Virus record (IMG/VR): IMGVR_UViG_3300042557_001137 | Location: 1 to 60,910 of that record | DNA from: a virus | Lineage: Duplodnaviria; Caudoviricetes | Reading direction: 5' to 3' (one strand) | DNA length: 60,910 bases | In this document: piece by piece, positions 7,466 through 34,339 of the stretch | Layout: each line of letters starts with the position of its first letter | Position numbering within the stretch: position 1 is the first letter of the stretch | Position numbers and translations under genes: made by a program | Notes under the pieces: generated by a model | The model's database searches: none | Seen by the model: the letters and a program-made list of their open reading frames with translations, nothing else | Told to the model about the DNA's origin: nothing

Positions 7466-8434
7466 TCACACGCGAAGCAAAATGGGCTTTTGATCAGCAG
7501 AAGTTGCGCCTGAATGCGGCAAAACAACCGCACTATAAGTCACGCCACCCCAAACCCATTCAACGATGTCTCCAGTCAAAAAAGTTCCGCCAGAAATATT
7601 GTATAGGTCTTTCAAAAGCCCACGCATCCAATCAAAACGATTGTTGCTAGCACTACTTCTACCAGACACAACCGTGCGGTTCACAAACCGTTGGTTGGTG
7701 TACAAATTTAAACTACCGGTTTGAAAATTAGCAAAAGAAGGAATTGTAAAAGCGGAGTTATGCGAAGACGTACCAAGATATACTGCGCCAGTAGCAAAAT
7801 TGTGCGTGTTACCTGCTGTTTGCCCAGGTTCAGTCAACGCAAAACCTTGGACGTTATTATCAGCAACTGACTGATTAGGATTTCCTGCAAAACTGCCGGT
7901 AAACACAAACGGCAACGGGTCCAATGACAACGGCAAAATGCTGTCGAACAGGCCCATGTACCAAAGAAATTTAATGGTAGTATTGCCAACACTGTTAGCA
8001 GATGCGATGATCCGGTCATTGGTAACTGAGTAATAGTACGAGTCGCCAGTCGCCAATGTGATTGTACGGAATGCAATCTGCGTGCCGGTCGACGGCAGGG
8101 CTACAGCTCCTTGCGGGTTGTAACCAAGAGCGTCAGGGACAAGGATTGCGGTGTTTGGCAAGAATCTGGTAGCGCGCTTAGTAGTGGTGTTCCACTCTTT
8201 CATCGCGGTCCACGCCATCGTGGTCTGACCAGTGGTCAAATATCCGATGGCGATAAAGAACTCGTTGCCAGCGCTGTTATTAGCTGCCGGACTTCGAAGC
8301 ACATCCCAAGTATAGGTGCCTTCAACGTAGTCGTTTTCGACTACTACCCAACCGTTGAGCACTAGATCAGCCGACAAACGATCGACCAGATCTTTAGCTG
8401 GAGTGGAGTTCAGTGATCCTACTCGATAAGTCAT
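7466..8434 (-). CDS. putative tail/virion structural protein
   Basis: 322-aa beta-rich G/T/N-rich ORF in the tail cluster; visibly lower GC than flanks. Confidence 0.6.
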   Translation of the reverse strand: MTYRVGSLNSTPAKDLVDRLSADLVLNGWVVVENDYVEGTYTWDVLRSPAANNSAGNEFFIAIGYLTTGQTTMAWTAMKEWNTTTKRATRFLPNTAILVPDALGYNPQGAVALPSTGTQIAFRTITLATGDSYYYSVTNDRIIASANSVGNTTIKFLWYMGLFDSILPLSLDPLPFVFTGSFAGNPNQSVADNNVQGFALTEPGQTAGNTHNFATGAVYLGTSSHNSAFTIPSFANFQTGSLNLYTNQRFVNRTVVSGRSSASNNRFDWMRGLLKDLYNISGGTFLTGDIVEWVWGGVTYSAVVLPHSGATSADQKPILLRV

Positions 8435-29235: not shown

Positions 29236-29272
29236 AAAGAAAAAGGGGCCCTCCCGGTTAGGGGAGGGCCCC
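29236..29272 (-). terminator. intrinsic terminator after major capsid gene
   Basis: 11-bp stem GGGGCCCTCCC/GGGAGGGCCCC followed by a T-run on the minus strand. Confidence 0.85.
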
Positions 29273-29278
29273 CACGGC

Positions 29279-30421
29279 TCAGAACGCCGTATCGAGGCAG
29301 ATCACGCCGAAGTCCTGCACATCACCGCTCACGTCGGTGTTGTAGCGGGGCTTGCGGAGGCCGAAGATCTTGCCGATCGAGATGCCAGCCTGGTTCTTGT
29401 AGTCGAAGGCGTCCTCGGTGATCTCCGGCAGACCGATGTCCGCCATCGCGAGGGCCTGCGCACCACAGAACAGGGCACGAGCACCGTTGACGTTAGCGGT
29501 CGCGCCCCACTTGTAGCCGGGGGCGCCCGCGTTGCCGACCGCGCCCGTGAGCGCGCCAGCCGTGTTGAAGACGTGACGGAACTCATGGACCATCACACCA
29601 TCAACCATCAGCGAGCTCGAACCCGAGAACAGCTGGTTATCCGGGCCTCGCACGCCAGCGTTACGAACGTTGGCAAGGAAGTCCGAATCCAGCTTAAGCG
29701 CGGCCATCTGCTGCGGGGTGACGAAGAGGTGATAGACCTCCTCATTACCGGCGCCACGCAGACCACGGATGTACTGGTCCTTAGCGTAGGCCTTAAGGTC
29801 GACGATGTGGCGGTACTTCAGCTTGTCGGTGGCAGTGATGGACGTCACGCTGCCAGCGGCCAAGTTGTCGCCCGACACACGACGATGCCGAAGAGCCGTC
29901 GGCGCAGTCACGTTCGAGGCGAACTCGAGGTTCGACAGGTTCTGGCCAGCAGGCAGGACCGTGCGAAGCGCGCCGTTCGTCTTGAGCGTGTAGGCCACAC
30001 CCGAAAGCGTAAGGAACCCGAGCTGATCGATACGATCCGCCATCGCGTAAGCGAGGGCGTCGCGCGAGGTCTCGCGGAAGTTCACCACCGACTTCTGATC
30101 AGCGAGACGGCCCGCGATACGGTTCGCGAAACGCAGCTGGTCGAGGTTGATGTTGATATCGTAGGCGCGGAGCGCCTCTTCGTTGCCTTCGAGCGTGTTG
30201 TCACCGGTCACGCCGTCGCCGGTCATGTCCGCGAGCAGGGTGATGACGGCCTTCGTGCCCTTGTCCGACTTGGTGAGCTCGGTGACACGCTGGATCATCG
30301 CATTGGAGCCAGAACCGACGAAGCGGTTCACAAACGACATATTGCGAGAGACGCGCCAGAAATCACGGCTCCACGCCGTGAGCTGTTCACTGGTCAGCGC
30401 CGCAAAGTTAGTAAGAGCCAT
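29279..30421 (-). CDS. major capsid protein (N4-gp56/DUF4043-like)
   Basis: MALTNF start after AAGGAG; ELTKS.KG..A.ITL, GD.TLEGNEEAL, DYKNQ.GIS.GKIFGL.K, DFGVI motifs; strong codon bias. Confidence 0.9.
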   Translation of the reverse strand: MALTNFAALTSEQLTAWSRDFWRVSRNMSFVNRFVGSGSNAMIQRVTELTKSDKGTKAVITLLADMTGDGVTGDNTLEGNEEALRAYDININLDQLRFANRIAGRLADQKSVVNFRETSRDALAYAMADRIDQLGFLTLSGVAYTLKTNGALRTVLPAGQNLSNLEFASNVTAPTALRHRRVSGDNLAAGSVTSITATDKLKYRHIVDLKAYAKDQYIRGLRGAGNEEVYHLFVTPQQMAALKLDSDFLANVRNAGVRGPDNQLFSGSSSLMVDGVMVHEFRHVFNTAGALTGAVGNAGAPGYKWGATANVNGARALFCGAQALAMADIGLPEITEDAFDYKNQAGISIGKIFGLRKPRYNTDVSGDVQDFGVICLDTAF

Positions 30422-30440
30422 GTTGGCATCTCCTTGAATT

Positions 30441-30639
30441 GCGTTATCAAACCCGATACGCACCCGCGTACCAGGAGCTGCAGCCGACTTGTGGAGCGGC
30501 TAACCCGTTTCCCCGTATCGTGGGGTCACGACTTAGCGCGTGTTCACGAGACGCGACCTCGGCAGGTTTACGCCGCTGCGGGCGAGGGTTCACCGTTTTT
30601 AACGTGTGCGACACGGCCGGAAACGTTCCGGCAAACGAA
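30441..30639 (-). ncRNA. structured 5' leader of the capsid mRNA (tandem small pseudoknots plus hairpins)
   Basis: Four H-type pseudoknot pairings, one related hairpin, an enclosing AACCC/GGGTT helix and two further hairpins, all read from sequence. Confidence 0.6.
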
Positions 30640-30647
30640 TACGTTGT

Positions 30648-30676
30648 AGATTAACAACAGTGATGCAAGTTCGCAA
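30648..30676 (-). promoter_or_regulatory. putative sigma70 promoter for the capsid gene
   Basis: TTGCGA-17 nt-TAATCT on the minus strand, just upstream of the structured leader. Confidence 0.5.
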
Positions 30677-30711
30677 CTGCTGAAGAAAAATTTGTCTTCA
30701 CGGTAAAATTT

Positions 30712-30751
30712 GTCCTTGCCGCCAAATTTTTCCAAAACTGGCGGCAAGGAC
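30712..30751. terminator. strong hairpin, probable terminator
   Basis: 13-bp perfect stem GTCCTTGCCGCCA/TGGCGGCAAGGAC with T-rich flanks. Confidence 0.6.
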
Positions 30752-30756
30752 GTTTT

Positions 30757-30867
30757 TTATACCCCTAGGTACTTCTTGGCCGGGGCGCTCTTGGCGCTAG
30801 CTTTCTTCATGCACTTACCCGCCTTCACACAGCGGCCAGGGGTCGGACAACCAGGACAAGGCTTCAT
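30757..30867 (-). CDS. small Cys/Lys-rich peptide (36 aa)
   Basis: AAGGAG RBS; MKPCPGCPTPGRCVKAGKCMKKASAKSAPAKKYLGV; below the ORF-track cutoff. Confidence 0.65.
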   Translation of the reverse strand: MKPCPGCPTPGRCVKAGKCMKKASAKSAPAKKYLGV

Positions 30868-30877
30868 ACAATTCTCC

Positions 30878-31162
30878 TTACCACTTCACTTTGTTGGCCC
30901 AGTAAGCAGCGGACATCTTGCCTTTGGCAATGTTGTCCGCGTGACGAGCTTTGAAGCTTTCGCGCCGGTTGCGATAAGCCTCAGACTCCCCCGTCTTTTT
31001 CGGGGATCCGCTGACGCCCTGCTGCCCGAAGCGGATAGTCTTCACCTGATCGCCGGTCTTAGCCACGACAACGTGGCTTTTGGTCGGATGACTAGGCGTA
31101 CGCTTCGGCTGGTTGTACCCGGAAACACCGACCCGGGCCAAACGCGGGTCTTTGCCAGCCAT
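30878..31162 (-). CDS. conserved basic phage protein
   Basis: YNQPKRTPSHPTKSHVVVAK..IRFGQQG..SFKARH..SAAYWANKVKW, a widespread phage family. Confidence 0.8.
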   Translation of the reverse strand: MAGKDPRLARVGVSGYNQPKRTPSHPTKSHVVVAKTGDQVKTIRFGQQGVSGSPKKTGESEAYRNRRESFKARHADNIAKGKMSAAYWANKVKW

Positions 31163-32184
31163 TAGATCAAGTCTCCACGCAGGCGCTTCAACGTTGCGGG
31201 CGGAAGAGCGTTGAACTCCTCTTCGGTGAGCGACATGAGGTCGAAAGTCTTCTCGCCCCGCGCTGCCGAGCTCTCCCCGGCCATGTCGGGAGGCTGCGAT
31301 GCTGCGGCCTTCAGTTTGTTAGCGACCTCGGCGCGCTTCTTCGCCACTTCATCGACAGCAGCCGTCTTGTCCCCCGTAGTCGGGGTGGTAACGGGCGTCG
31401 TAGCAGCCGCAGCGGCCGTTTCTCCCGCCAGGCCGTACTCGCTGATGACGAATTTGGCCGCTTTCGACAAGGCCGCAACCGCGTTTTCGCCCTTCACGAT
31501 GAAGGCATCACGCAAATCGATGACCTCCTGCGTGTACTTTTCGTTGAAATCGGGGCTCGCCCGGTCGAAAACCGGGAAGTTCGTTTCCAACGCTGCGGCA
31601 GCCTGCTGCAGAGCGCTGATCTGGTAGCTCTGCGCCACCTTCTGCTCCATCTTCTGGCCCATTTCGAACTCGATCTGGGCCCGTTCGGCCTTGCGGATGT
31701 CCGCTCGGAGCGCCGCCGCCTTCTCGTGCTGCCCATCGAGCACCAAGTTCTGGTACTCGACCTCCTTCGAGGCGAAATCGTAGGCATCTGGAGCGGTTTC
31801 CGCCGCCTGCCGGGTCGCCATCAGGTCGTCGAGCTGCTTCTGGAGGGCCTTCTGCTTGGCCAGCACCTCGTCAAGACGGGCTTTCGGCACCATCGGGCGA
31901 CGCTGCTCCGGCTCTTTGGCCGCTTTCGGCGGCTCGGGAGTGGGCTCCGGGGGCGTTTCCGGCTTTGCGGCCTCAGAAACCGGCTCGGGAGTCGGTTCGG
32001 CGGCGGGCTTTTCGGGTTCCGGGGTCGGCTCGGGGGTCGGATCCGGGGCCGAAGCCTCGGCAGCAGGGGGCGCTGGCTCGTCGCCGAGGCCAAAGTTGAA
32101 GTCGAACGGCTGCTCCGGAGCCGCCTCGGCCGGATCGGCGCCAGGCATCTGCTCCATAACCACTTCCTTCTTGCTGTCAGACAT
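31162..32184 (-). CDS. capsid scaffolding protein
   Basis: P/E-rich N-terminus, VPKARLDEV, coiled coils, ends EEEFNALP..LKRLRGD; lies between portal and capsid genes. Confidence 0.75.
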   Translation of the reverse strand: MSDSKKEVVMEQMPGADPAEAAPEQPFDFNFGLGDEPAPPAAEASAPDPTPEPTPEPEKPAAEPTPEPVSEAAKPETPPEPTPEPPKAAKEPEQRRPMVPKARLDEVLAKQKALQKQLDDLMATRQAAETAPDAYDFASKEVEYQNLVLDGQHEKAAALRADIRKAERAQIEFEMGQKMEQKVAQSYQISALQQAAAALETNFPVFDRASPDFNEKYTQEVIDLRDAFIVKGENAVAALSKAAKFVISEYGLAGETAAAAATTPVTTPTTGDKTAAVDEVAKKRAEVANKLKAAASQPPDMAGESSAARGEKTFDLMSLTEEEFNALPPATLKRLRGDLI

Positions 32185-32194
32185 AGGTACTCCT

Positions 32195-34339
32195 TCAGTT
32201 TGTCATGGGCCGCGAAGGGGACGGGCGCGGCTGGCCCTGGGACTGCGCTTTTGCAGAGGTCTGCATAACGGTGGCGGCAATGCGAGTAGCCGCCGCCGTC
32301 TCCTGCTGCTGCTGTCGCGACTGGTTGGAGAGCGCGGCAAGCTCGCGGCGCAGCTCCAGTTCGCGGGTCTTGGTGTCGACCTTGCTCTGCAGCTCCGCCA
32401 TGCGCAACTGCGGGTCGACTTCGGCAACGGTCTGCGCCTTGGCCATGTTGACCGCAGTCTCCGACTGGAGCTTTTCGATCTCGGCCTGTGCACGCTGCAG
32501 CTCCAGCTGGATCTGCTGCATCGCCAGTTCGTTCTGCATGGCGGCGGCCTCCTGCTGCTCCGGGGTCTGCTCGACGCCTGTAGCCATACGGATACGCTTG
32601 GCGAGTTCGCCCTTACGAGCGAGGTGGCTGTACTCGATGATCGCGTCGTCCGGGATCATGATGCCGACCTGCCGCAGGCTAAGCGCCTCGGCAAACTGCA
32701 TCTCATCGAACGAGTCGCGGGCCGGCGCGGTGCCGATCACCACGTCATACTCGCCGAGCGTAAGGTCGTTGATGACGCGGCCTTCCGGAGTCATGGCGTT
32801 GATCACCATCGGCTCTCGCGGCTTGAGCGGATCGTCTTCGTTGGTGATCTGGATGACACGCTGCTCAGTGTAAAACCGCTGCACAATATTGAGGATCTTC
32901 TCAGCCAGATAATGCCGCGTCTTTCGCAGGTTGTCGAGCGGCACCTGGATCATGATCACGCCGCGATTCTGCTTGGCCTGGATAGCGATCCCCGAGACCT
33001 CAGCTCCGTCCGACCCGAGCATCGAGTCGTTCACGCCGCTGATGGTCTTGATGTTGAGCGCCGCTTTCTGGCTGATGCGATCCAGCCCGGTGGGGATCTG
33101 GTTCGGAGTGATCTTTGTCGGCGGCTGTGAGCCACGGTTGTACTCGACCACCAAGCCGGTTTCCGCGCCCTTCTCCTCAAGATCATCGACCGTCATGCTG
33201 GTCAAAGAGCCGCTCTCGACCATCCACCCGCTGTTGGCGGTGGTGTTGACGATGTGCAGCTCTTGGCTGGCGATCTTGTTCAGCTGCTCCTGCGGAGACA
33301 GCAGATTGCGGACCATGCCAAACGGCCGGCCGCGACGGAAGTACGCGAAATACGGCACCAACGTGAAGTCTTCATAAGGCGACCAGTCATCGTGCAGCAC
33401 GACCCGATCGCAAGTCACGGTCCACCGCACTTTGCGCTGCATCTTGCTGATGATACCGAGTCCGTACTGCTTGGCGAACTTCTTGGTCCGCTGCTCGGAC
33501 CAGCTGTCGGGGACAATGCGCTGGTCGCCCGTGTTCGGGTCGACAAAGAACTCCGCGCGCGACATCTTGCGGTACTGACGTTCGATCACACGCAGCGCCT
33601 TGACGTTGCGATAGCTTTCGCCGTCGGGGATCGCCGCGCCAAGGAACGCCTGCGAATTCTCGGTCTCGCCGAAACGCGTCTCTTCGTACTCGATAGAGTC
33701 GCGGCTGTAACCGGTGCCGTTCTCGGCGACATACCGCAGGGCCTCGGCCTTGTCTTTACCGTACAGCTCTTCGATCTCGTCCAAGGTCATCCAGCGACTT
33801 TCGAACACTTCGTTCCAGGTCTTCGGATCGTATTCTTTGGCGTCCGGATCGAGCAGGATGTCCAGCGGGTCTTTGGCCGTGATACGGACTTCGCCCTCGA
33901 CGTGGTCGCTGAAGTCCATGCGGACGTCAAAGTAACCACGTCCGTCCAAGATCAGCCCGTCGCTGAACACCTGCTGCTCGACCCAGTCGAGCTTGTTGTT
34001 GTCGCCGATCTGCATGTAGAGCTTGGTCAGCACAGAGGCGACGTCCTGATCACCGCCGCGACGCGGCTTGAACTGCACGTCGGCCCGGCGCGTGGACTGT
34101 TCGCCAAGGACCGTGTTCACGGTCGGAAGCACGGTGTTGATGGTCAGTGACGGGCGTCCCTCGGCTTCCAGCTTCGCGATATCAGCCTTGTCCCACTGGT
34201 CGCCACGGTAGAAGGCATCGCACTTCTTGGCCATCTCGACATACTTGAGATGCCCGTTGTCCCGCGCGCGTACGTAGCGGTTCCACTGCGTGCGAGCCAG
34301 CTGCTGCTCTTCGATGGACTGCGACTTGATCTTGGCCAT
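32195..34339 (-). CDS. portal protein (P22-like)
   Basis: FYRGDQW..L...GRP.LTIN, R.L..PQ..LNK, SGIAI..KQ, G.YDVV motifs; Q-rich barrel C-terminus. Confidence 0.9.
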   Translation of the reverse strand: MAKIKSQSIEEQQLARTQWNRYVRARDNGHLKYVEMAKKCDAFYRGDQWDKADIAKLEAEGRPSLTINTVLPTVNTVLGEQSTRRADVQFKPRRGGDQDVASVLTKLYMQIGDNNKLDWVEQQVFSDGLILDGRGYFDVRMDFSDHVEGEVRITAKDPLDILLDPDAKEYDPKTWNEVFESRWMTLDEIEELYGKDKAEALRYVAENGTGYSRDSIEYEETRFGETENSQAFLGAAIPDGESYRNVKALRVIERQYRKMSRAEFFVDPNTGDQRIVPDSWSEQRTKKFAKQYGLGIISKMQRKVRWTVTCDRVVLHDDWSPYEDFTLVPYFAYFRRGRPFGMVRNLLSPQEQLNKIASQELHIVNTTANSGWMVESGSLTSMTVDDLEEKGAETGLVVEYNRGSQPPTKITPNQIPTGLDRISQKAALNIKTISGVNDSMLGSDGAEVSGIAIQAKQNRGVIMIQVPLDNLRKTRHYLAEKILNIVQRFYTEQRVIQITNEDDPLKPREPMVINAMTPEGRVINDLTLGEYDVVIGTAPARDSFDEMQFAEALSLRQVGIMIPDDAIIEYSHLARKGELAKRIRMATGVEQTPEQQEAAAMQNELAMQQIQLELQRAQAEIEKLQSETAVNMAKAQTVAEVDPQLRMAELQSKVDTKTRELELRRELAALSNQSRQQQQETAAATRIAATVMQTSAKAQSQGQPRPSPSRPMTN

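Follow-up and report, generated by a model that had tools for sequence, protein, structure and literature searches.

A conserved tandem array of miniature H-type pseudoknots in the predicted capsid mRNA leader of an uncultured phage and its relatives

The window analysed here, a stretch of 60,910 bases that constitutes one complete uncultured virus record, carries a compact structured RNA on its minus strand, directly ahead of the major capsid gene. Comparison of related leaders shows an RNA that is predicted to be built of six short hairpins ahead of a variable one, with five of the six forming small H-type pseudoknots. We consider it very probable that this element is a real family of pseudoknotted cis-acting RNA; the family is absent from Rfam, displays five or six tiny knots in a row and is present in one copy per contig. 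Consistent with the original prediction of a structured cis-acting capsid mRNA leader made of tandem miniature H-type pseudoknots, position, conservation and covariation all agree with such a leader, but the enclosing helix and the last hairpin that were part of that prediction do not withstand comparison with relatives. The best overall explanation, whose prospects of being right or wrong we regard as evenly balanced, would be that the knotted leader serves as a 5′ roadblock for a monocistronic capsid mRNA.

The sequence is present in 20 runs, all of them lake-water or metagenome DNA contigs, and the features of the locus are collected in Table 1. The analysis shows the flagged stretch to be the putative 5′ leader of a separately promoted capsid transcript. 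Both boxes of the sigma-70-type promoter proposed earlier are confirmed in the letters and conserved among relatives: of 103 aligned leaders, 68 have TAATAT and 13 have TAATCT as their −10 box (81/103 together), and conservation of the relatives' sequence sets in at the −35 box. This promoter is absent from the output of a simple consensus promoter scan. Transcription is predicted to start at about 30640-30642; the −10 box ends 7–13 nt before the CGU of knot A in the aligned leaders, which should tie the very 5′ terminus of the transcript into the first knot. The upstream regions of the capsid relatives align from the promoter to the ribosome-binding site (RBS) and are better conserved than the preceding open reading frame (ORF). 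GGAG and ATGGC are kept in all relatives listed, and the Shine-Dalgarno sequence (SD) is unpaired in the centroid fold and not included in the conserved structure, its distance from the array being variable. The capsid protein itself matches Pfam PF13252 Phage_capsid_3 (E 5.5e-45) and the PHROG 334 major head protein (E 1.4e-81). A terminator comparable to that of the window lies at most 110 nt from the capsid stop in 60 of the 81 relatives with enough sequence. The capsid gene, flanked by leader structure on its 5′ side and a terminator hairpin on its 3′ side, thus has the appearance of a self-contained unit.

Table 1. Positions in the window of the predicted leader RNA, its proposed pairings and the surrounding genes and signals
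Feature	Position	Strand	Description
P22-like portal gene	32195-34339	minus	
Scaffold-like gene	31162-32184	minus	between portal and 94-aa genes
94-aa gene		minus	after scaffold-like gene, just upstream of 36-aa ORF
36-aa Cys/Lys-rich ORF		minus	just upstream of leader, after 94-aa gene
Long hairpin	30705-30757		between 36-aa ORF and flagged stretch
Sigma-70-type promoter	30648-30676	minus	−35 TTGCGA 30671-30676, 17-nt spacer, −10 TAATCT 30648-30653
Structured RNA	30482-30638	minus	~160 nt, within about 0–6 nt after promoter
Knot A	30616-30638	minus	hairpin GCCGG 30628-30632 / CCGGC 30616-30620; loop AACG (family ACGAUA) with 5′-terminal CGUU 30634-30637 (family register UCGU 30635-30638)
Unit HP2	30593-30615	minus	hairpin CGUG 30612-30615 / CACG 30603-30606, then spacer UUAAAAACGG
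Knot B	30562-30584	minus	hairpin CGCC 30581-30584 / GGCG 30571-30574; loop GCA(G) 30576-30579 with (C)UGC 30562-30565 past spacer UAAAC
Knot C	30537-30561	minus	hairpin CGAGG 30557-30561 / UCUCG 30547-30551; loop CGC 30553-30555 with GCG 30537-30539 past spacer UGAACA
Knot D	30510-30531	minus	hairpin CCCC 30522-30525 / GGGG 30511-30514; UCGU 30528-30531 with ACGA 30518-30521 in ACGAUAC loop
Knot E	30482-30506	minus	hairpin AGCCG 30497-30501 / CGGCU 30482-30486; GGG 30504-30506 with UCC 30493-30495 in hairpin loop
Variable hairpin HP7	30452-30475	minus	CCUGGUACGC / GCGUAUCGGG
Shine-Dalgarno sequence	30430-30435	minus	AAGGAG, from the letters
Capsid start codon	30419-30421	minus	ATG, from the letters
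Major capsid gene	29279-30421	minus	380 aa
Intrinsic terminator-like hairpin and T-run	29244-29273	minus	just past capsid stop; 12 pairs, 10 G-C

All four interleaved units of the original prediction were recovered by a blind scan of the minus strand between 30441 and 30640 for Watson-Crick H-type knots (S1 and S2 of at least 4, L1 of 1–3, L2 of 0–2 and L3 of 2–8). The scan returned exactly four non-overlapping units, at 30617-30637, 30562-30584, 30538-30561 and 30511-30531, while dinucleotide shuffles (n = 1000) gave a mean of 0.28 knots (s.d. 0.50) and reached four in none of the 1000. The nested-fold energy of the same region is ordinary (z = −1.36, with 17 of 200 shuffles folding as well), as it should be if knots account for much of the pairing.

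Relatives of the capsid gene were identified in viral contigs for 582 of 594 candidate stretches, and the best 80 of the 582 were used. A search blind to gene context, based on a DNA pattern from the hairpin at 30482-30501, retrieved at least 117 loci. Among the matches listed, 104 carry the motif and 13 are chance matches without it; of the former, 100 have the start of a capsid homologue 64–93 nt downstream and 4 end at a contig edge, so that the motif precedes a capsid gene in 100 of 100 assessable loci among the matches listed. The leader sequences retrieved comprise 100 distinct ones among 157. Run against 91 non-redundant sources with a total of 666 kb, a covariance model built from the nested hairpins only gives exactly one match per source, with E values of at most 3.5e-19. 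The same model gives no match in the nearest isolates, the Pseudomonas phages KPP25 and phiR18 (~65% nucleotide identity in the capsid gene), and 50,697 deposited phage genomes contain no blastn match to the leader or to those of two relatives. A scan of genome contigs led mostly to metagenome bins with conflicting labels and to one isolate, the cultured gammaproteobacterium Motiliproteus coralliicola, in which a distantly similar leader (model E = 0.036) is located in a prophage region. The conserved core does not code for protein, since reading frames remain open over it in only 3, 2 and 5 of 91 relatives and lengths differ by 1–2 nt. A 55-aa ORF at 30447-30614 was likewise rejected as coding.

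The element also appears new with respect to described RNA families: a strong Rfam match is absent. Rfam 15 places nothing at gathering score anywhere in the window, and its hits on 30000-31200 are limited to sub-threshold chance matches on the upstream hairpin and the opposite strand. On the leader's own strand nothing is found at E ≤ 10 (STAXI, preQ1 and GP20-a/b being among the families), and the leaders of 17 diverse relatives give nothing at E ≤ 1. Literature searches returned no description of the element and no paper tying the coremin motif, discussed below, to phages; the one paper that mentions both appears to deal with a plant virus.

Alignment of homologous leaders, which the original prediction had listed among its checks, reveals covariation in about 100 distinct relatives. 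The statistics that follow were calculated on a model-based alignment (A3) of 90 distinct rows; the knot pairs are not part of the model, and the alignment is therefore not fitted to them. The six nested helices have 96.9% of their cells paired and 21 of 28 pairs changed on both sides; 0 of 500 shuffles came as high on any of the measures. The five knot helices are paired in 92.3% of cells, compared with 18.4–45.3% when the partner strand is slid by 1–3 columns. They show 49 cells changed on both sides against 10.5 in shuffles (0/500 as high) and 20 pair types against 14.9 (2/500 as high); the excess of pairs changed on both sides is modest (8 versus 5.3 shuffled, 12/500). Mapped on the capsid tree, the changes in knot pairs are many and independent. 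G·U cells outnumber A·C cells by 110 to 25, which identifies the capsid-sense strand as the folding strand. Judged on the aligned letters, covariation appears good for knots A, B and E, is present to some extent in knot C and gives way mostly to conservation alone in knot D. In A, B and E, both stems of the H-type fold are kept by compensating changes.

The knots are of two types. In knots A, D and E, a strand upstream of the hairpin pairs into the hairpin loop (ACGAUA or YCC), and in knots B and C the partner of the loop lies downstream, past an A-rich UWAAAC spacer. The knot stems are only 3–4 bp long and some of their pairs are often unpaired across the 90 rows. There are almost no free letters between units: knot A abuts HP2, and the 3′ strand of stem 2 of knot B abuts the hairpin of knot C, an arrangement that may invite end-to-end stacking. 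A swapped pairing between the look-alike knots A and D was also considered and does no better than shuffled controls.

The hairpin of knot A is paired in 98.2% of cells, with five of five pairs changed on both sides. Three pairs of its knot stem are never unpaired (C-G in 90 of 90 rows; G-C in 86 and U-A in 4; U-A in 81, C-G in 5 and U-G in 4), and the outermost one is unpaired in 37 of 90. Knot A shows 6 state changes on the capsid tree. The original prediction had also drawn two simpler hairpins, CGTGT/ACACG within the unit at 30593-30616 and another at 30482-30501; both are real and conserved in relatives. The former belongs to HP2, whose hairpin is 100% paired, with two of four pairs changed on both sides. 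HP2 shares the layout of B and C, and its candidate knot, loop CG(Y) with (A)CG, shows two invariant pairs, a third formed in 50 of 90 rows and no covariation. The hairpin of knot B is equally paired in 100% of cells, contains two covarying pairs and is closed by C-G in 89 of 90 rows. Its GCA/UGC knot stem is paired in 90.6% of cells and all three pairs have changed on both sides. The first of them (G-C in 67 rows, A-U in 14, G-U in 9, none unpaired) has undergone at least 17 state changes on the capsid tree, with 84 of 84 rows paired; the middle pair is unpaired in 10 of 90 rows and the third, which has G-C, C-G and U-A variants, in 15 of 90.

The 5-bp hairpin of knot C is paired in 99.8% of cells, with three pairs changed on both sides. 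Its stem 2 had been drawn as CGCG/CGCG. Three of these pairs hold family-wide, but the fourth is unpaired in 59 of 91 rows, making this a stem of 3 bp across the family; two of the three are invariant, and the third is C-G in 76 rows, U-A in 3, A-U in 1, U-G in 1 and unpaired in 9. Knot D combines a hairpin in which five of five pairs have changed on both sides and a knot stem that is mostly invariant (U-A in 84 rows, U-G in 3, C-G in 1), with one compensating row and an outer pair unpaired in 22 of 90. Downstream of it lies a fifth knot, E, which was overlooked in the original prediction and in which GGR, 5′ of the 30482-30501 hairpin, pairs with YCC in the hairpin loop. Its hairpin is 99.3% paired with few variants. 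The knot pairs read G-C in 84 rows; G-C in 83 and G-U in 3; and A-U in 57, G-U in 15 and U-A in 8, with 8 unpaired. GGA/UCC, GGU/ACC and GGG/UCC are thus interchanged, with 12 state changes of the third pair on the capsid tree. An anti-SD role for the CUCC of the knot E loop was rejected, this motif changing to CACC in several clades (as judged by eye).

Two further elements of the original prediction fail in the same alignments. The AACCC/GGGTT helix thought to enclose three units is paired in 60.8% of cells against 61.3% in shuffled alignments, and 374 of 500 shuffles are as high. In the terminal hairpin proposed at 30441-30461 (GCGT/ACGC), the third pair is unpaired in 11 of 13 distinct close relatives, without covariation. 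The hairpin that does covary here is the variable HP7, which is paired in 99.2% of cells, with three pairs changed on both sides, among 13 distinct close relatives. Family-wide, most relatives have a hairpin of differing sequence at this position (median MFE z = −2.26 over 100 leaders).

Three of the units call to mind coremin (xrRNA-C), a protein-free Xrn1 stop that is described as consisting of a 3–4-bp hairpin whose loop reads YGAD or YGNNAD, followed by a conserved ~10-nt spacer and another hairpin (PMC6546385, PMC10520033). According to PMC6546385, the first hairpin has 3–5 bp and requires a pyrimidine-purine loop-closing pair, and the conserved spacers are needed for the protein-free fold. 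PMC10520033 gives the loop consensus as YGAD (4 nt) or YGNNAD (6 nt) and prints a 20-nt motif. The coremin spacer reads UUAAACUAC after the stem. Knot B resembles this plan in its 4-bp first hairpin (CGCC/GGCG in the window), which starts with CG and has a C-G closing pair, and in some relatives its stem is identical, CGUC/GACG. Like the second coremin hairpin, which has at least 4 bp and adjoins the spacer, the 5-bp hairpin of knot C begins at the base right after the B spacer (30561); this spacer opens with UUAAAC or UAAAAC, and HP2 and C repeat the plan of B. In the window the B spacer is one letter shorter (9 nt) than in relatives (10 nt), and its last four letters, CUGC or CUGU, are unlike those of coremin; G[GA]CGU[UA]AAAC is found in 69 of 90 leaders and the 10-mer common with coremin in 5 of 90. 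A Watson-Crick coremin variant, xrRNA-WCC, which is reported to stall Xrn1, has a 3-bp stem between loop letters 2–4 and the spacer (PMC10321173). Similarly, letters 2–4 of the B loop (GCA) form three antiparallel pairs with UGC of the spacer, but the 3′ strand comprises spacer letters 8–10 rather than 6–8, that is, 2 nt further along.

The loops set the two motifs apart. That of B has 5–7 nt (CGCAGC in the window; most commonly UGCACA, UGCACAA or UACAAA) and misses the coremin consensus, which is matched only by UGUAAA in 9 of 90 rows; these rows belong to the clade in which the middle Watson-Crick pair of B stem 2 is replaced by U·U. Coremin is furthermore found in the 3′ UTRs of beny-, cucumo- and other RNA viruses, whereas the present units lie in 5′ leaders of DNA phages, where they form arrays together with knots of a second type (A, D and E), for which no known counterpart was found. 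Because the loop consensus is missed though stem, first six spacer letters and second hairpin fit, HP2, B and C are, as far as their letters tell, coremin-like in build and not members of the coremin family. Elsewhere in the window, coremin-like units are limited to one weak chance match at 7693. A flaviviral xrRNA halts bacterial RNase J1 in vitro (PMC5760640), indicating that such folds can in principle act on bacterial enzymes.

Among the functions put forward in the original prediction, a nuclease block would fit best, given that the array lies at the predicted 5′ end, the RBS is free, a terminator closes the message and three units are coremin-like. In this mechanism the array would fold without protein into a stack of mechanically tough knots from the first transcribed nucleotides. 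The stack would act as a 5′ roadblock and hide the 5′ end from RppH and from 5′-end-dependent entry and scanning by RNase E, an enzyme that scans from the 5′ end; in hosts bearing RNase J, the array would halt that 5′–3′ exonuclease. Combined with the terminator hairpin that follows the stop codon, the roadblock would yield a long-lived monocistronic capsid mRNA whose RBS is left open, and a long-lived message suits the most abundantly needed virion protein. That stabilisation by such a roadblock would be the main job of the leader has, in our estimate, a little less than an even chance. The M. coralliicola genome encodes RNase E and RNase G, both above curated cut-offs, and no RNase J, which favours RNase E and RppH, rather than an exonuclease, as the opponent in at least this species; there, a literal exonuclease block cannot be the whole story. 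A bolder version is doubtful: bacterial phages might carry true coremin-type RNAs resistant to exoribonucleases or scanning, in arrays of five or six that stand in for a 5′ cap. The knot CGNC-loop-GNCG-UUAAAC-loop complement-hairpin would then be a block common to DNA phages and eukaryotic RNA viruses, and the first natural xrRNA directed against bacterial RNase J or RNase E scanning.

Repeated protein-binding sites would be equally compatible with the near-invariant unpaired letters (ACGAUA twice, UWAAAC three times). In such an operator, the repeated units would bind a phage protein (capsid, scaffold or one of the small basic proteins of the neighbouring genes) or a host protein and tune capsid translation or decay, a role we consider unlikely. 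Motif counts are consistent with it, ACGAUA occurring in 82 of 90 leaders with 1.6 copies and CGU[UA]AAA in 90 of 90 with 1.9 copies, unpaired and near-invariant in both cases, as is the location of the 36-aa Cys/Lys-rich and 94-aa ORFs just upstream; T4 gene 32 and the P22 scaffold are precedents for autogenous control. However, the conserved array includes neither the SD nor the start codon, and their distance from it varies, so that simple occlusion is unlikely. No candidate partner emerged, and the conserved spacers are also needed by the coremin fold, which forms without protein (PMC6546385). Protein-binding autoregulation and a packaging role, both named in the original prediction, have no support of their own. 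Alternatively, the knot stack could act as a standby or recruitment platform for the 30S subunit, for instance via protein S1, and raise initiation at the open SD. This enhancer would accord with a free SD and with an array placed 64–93 nt ahead of the ATG for the late protein in highest demand, and protein S1 favours pseudoknot ligands; the leader, however, shows no complementarity to 16S rRNA, and we judge the enhancer quite improbable.

Action at the level of transcription, through put-like processive antitermination or an HP7 attenuator that sets read-through into the late genes, appears very improbable. The structural-gene arm does have this RNA immediately after its promoter, the capsid gene is followed by a terminator, and in 23 of 100 leaders HP7 precedes at least five T in 9 nt; yet this T-rich tail is missing in the other 77, a terminator scan finds none in the leader and the array has no covarying alternative pairings. 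The size, knots and conserved unpaired letters of the leader also fall within the range of riboswitch aptamers, but a ligand- or temperature-sensing riboswitch would call for an expression platform, of which there is none: no conserved helix ever occludes the SD. Release of a trans-acting or packaging RNA from the leader is likewise hard to reconcile with an element that, besides having no Rfam match, is found in a single copy per genome and invariably as part of the capsid message. Riboswitch and released RNA together seem to us barely plausible.

Should the array indeed block nucleases or their scanning, programmed RNase resistance would reach beyond eukaryotic RNA viruses to include bacteriophages, and the leader would illustrate how phages preserve the late message they need most while offering a compact, protein-free and modular mRNA stabiliser for bacterial expression. 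Whatever its function, the element constitutes a large and well-covarying multi-pseudoknot family that is abundant in lake and marine viromes and a good target for structure determination. Its two knot types and the U·U clade with a coremin-fitting loop may help to explain the still unsolved coremin fold.

Several known systems share individual traits with this leader. A 2023 structured-RNA screen of IMG/VR, the same contig collection, reported 8495 candidates, some of them upstream of capsid genes (PMC10690425). The portion of its text drawn on here names five candidates upstream of PHA00201-type capsids, unlike the PF13252 capsid of the window, and describes no pseudoknot array; an unnamed candidate among its 8495 may overlap with the present family. 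In the T4 gene 32 operator, mentioned in the same paper, a phage mRNA leader likewise begins with an H-type pseudoknot, but that operator consists of a single knot and an unstructured tract that binds the gene's own ssDNA-binding product, whereas here five or six knots precede a capsid gene and not, as in an autogenous operator of that type, the gene of an RNA- or ssDNA-binding protein. STAXI is an Rfam family with a tandemly repeated pseudoknot unit, a trait common to both elements; the leader differs in its context and in having no Rfam match, which bears on STAXI if that family is in release 15. The upstream pseudoknot domain of the TMV 3′ UTR consists of abutting small H-type knots and has been connected with the stability and translation of the message. 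It belongs to the 3′ end of the genome of a eukaryotic RNA virus, has other partners and shares no sequence likeness with the phage leader, but in both RNAs H-type knots abut one another and probably stack into one stalk.

More structural genes lie on the same strand beyond the terminator that follows the capsid gene (see table), and a terminator between the capsid stop and further structural genes is also present in 60 of 81 relatives. Because it directly follows the capsid stop with structural genes still to come, its placement implies that the capsid would be over-expressed through partial termination. Upstream, the hairpin ahead of the capsid promoter could be the terminator of the 36-aa ORF, whose product may be a small nucleic-acid-binding protein of the zinc-ribbon type; a Lys-rich tail also ends the upstream ORF in relatives. 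Conservation of the 3' part of the 94-aa ORF is unusually wide at the DNA level, with 67-79% nucleotide identity to Roseobacter phage SIO1, CRP, Celeribacter and Lentibacter phages and cyanophages.

Features flanking the capsid gene and its promoter
Feature	Position	Strand	Remarks
Strong intrinsic terminator	29244-29273	-	Immediately 3' of capsid stop
Long perfect hairpin	30705-30757	-	Directly after 36-aa ORF, ahead of capsid promoter
36-aa ORF, Cys- and Lys-rich	30757-30867	-	CxxC...C...C, then basic tail
94-aa ORF	30878-31162	-	PHROG 7595 (unknown function)

The word ACGCA (30441-30446, minus strand), located 5-25 nt 5' of the Shine-Dalgarno, also recurs in relatives, where it is retained by many clades that differ elsewhere; no conserved partner with which it could pair was found.

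Contigs carrying the capsid and leader of this phage (L292-L297) have been binned in metagenome-assembled genomes, under the labels Poseidoniales archaeon, Dehalococcoidales, Verrucomicrobiales and Gammaproteobacteria. They are probably mis-binned viral contigs, and the labels are therefore uninformative on host. A prophage-like capsid (57% identity) occurs on a scaffold of the cultured gammaproteobacterium Motiliproteus coralliicola, preceded (L299, 480-640) by TTGCGC-N17-TATAAT and then roughly three units built as TCGT-NN-stem-ACGACAC-stem. These units are of the A/D knot type, in which a 5' strand pairs into a hairpin loop; the coremin-like units are absent there. The Motiliproteus coralliicola genome encodes RNase E and RNase G; RNase J was not found in it. 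This prophage region offers a possible laboratory handle on the leader family.

Among the coremin-like units, the middle pair of the second stem of knot B (columns 70/88 of A3, the model-based leader alignment) is U.U in 10 rows, such as L239, L188 and L186, where GUA faces UUC, both sides being altered together. Rows of this clade have the loop UGUAAA, which fits YGNNAD, the published coremin hexaloop consensus (PMC10520033).
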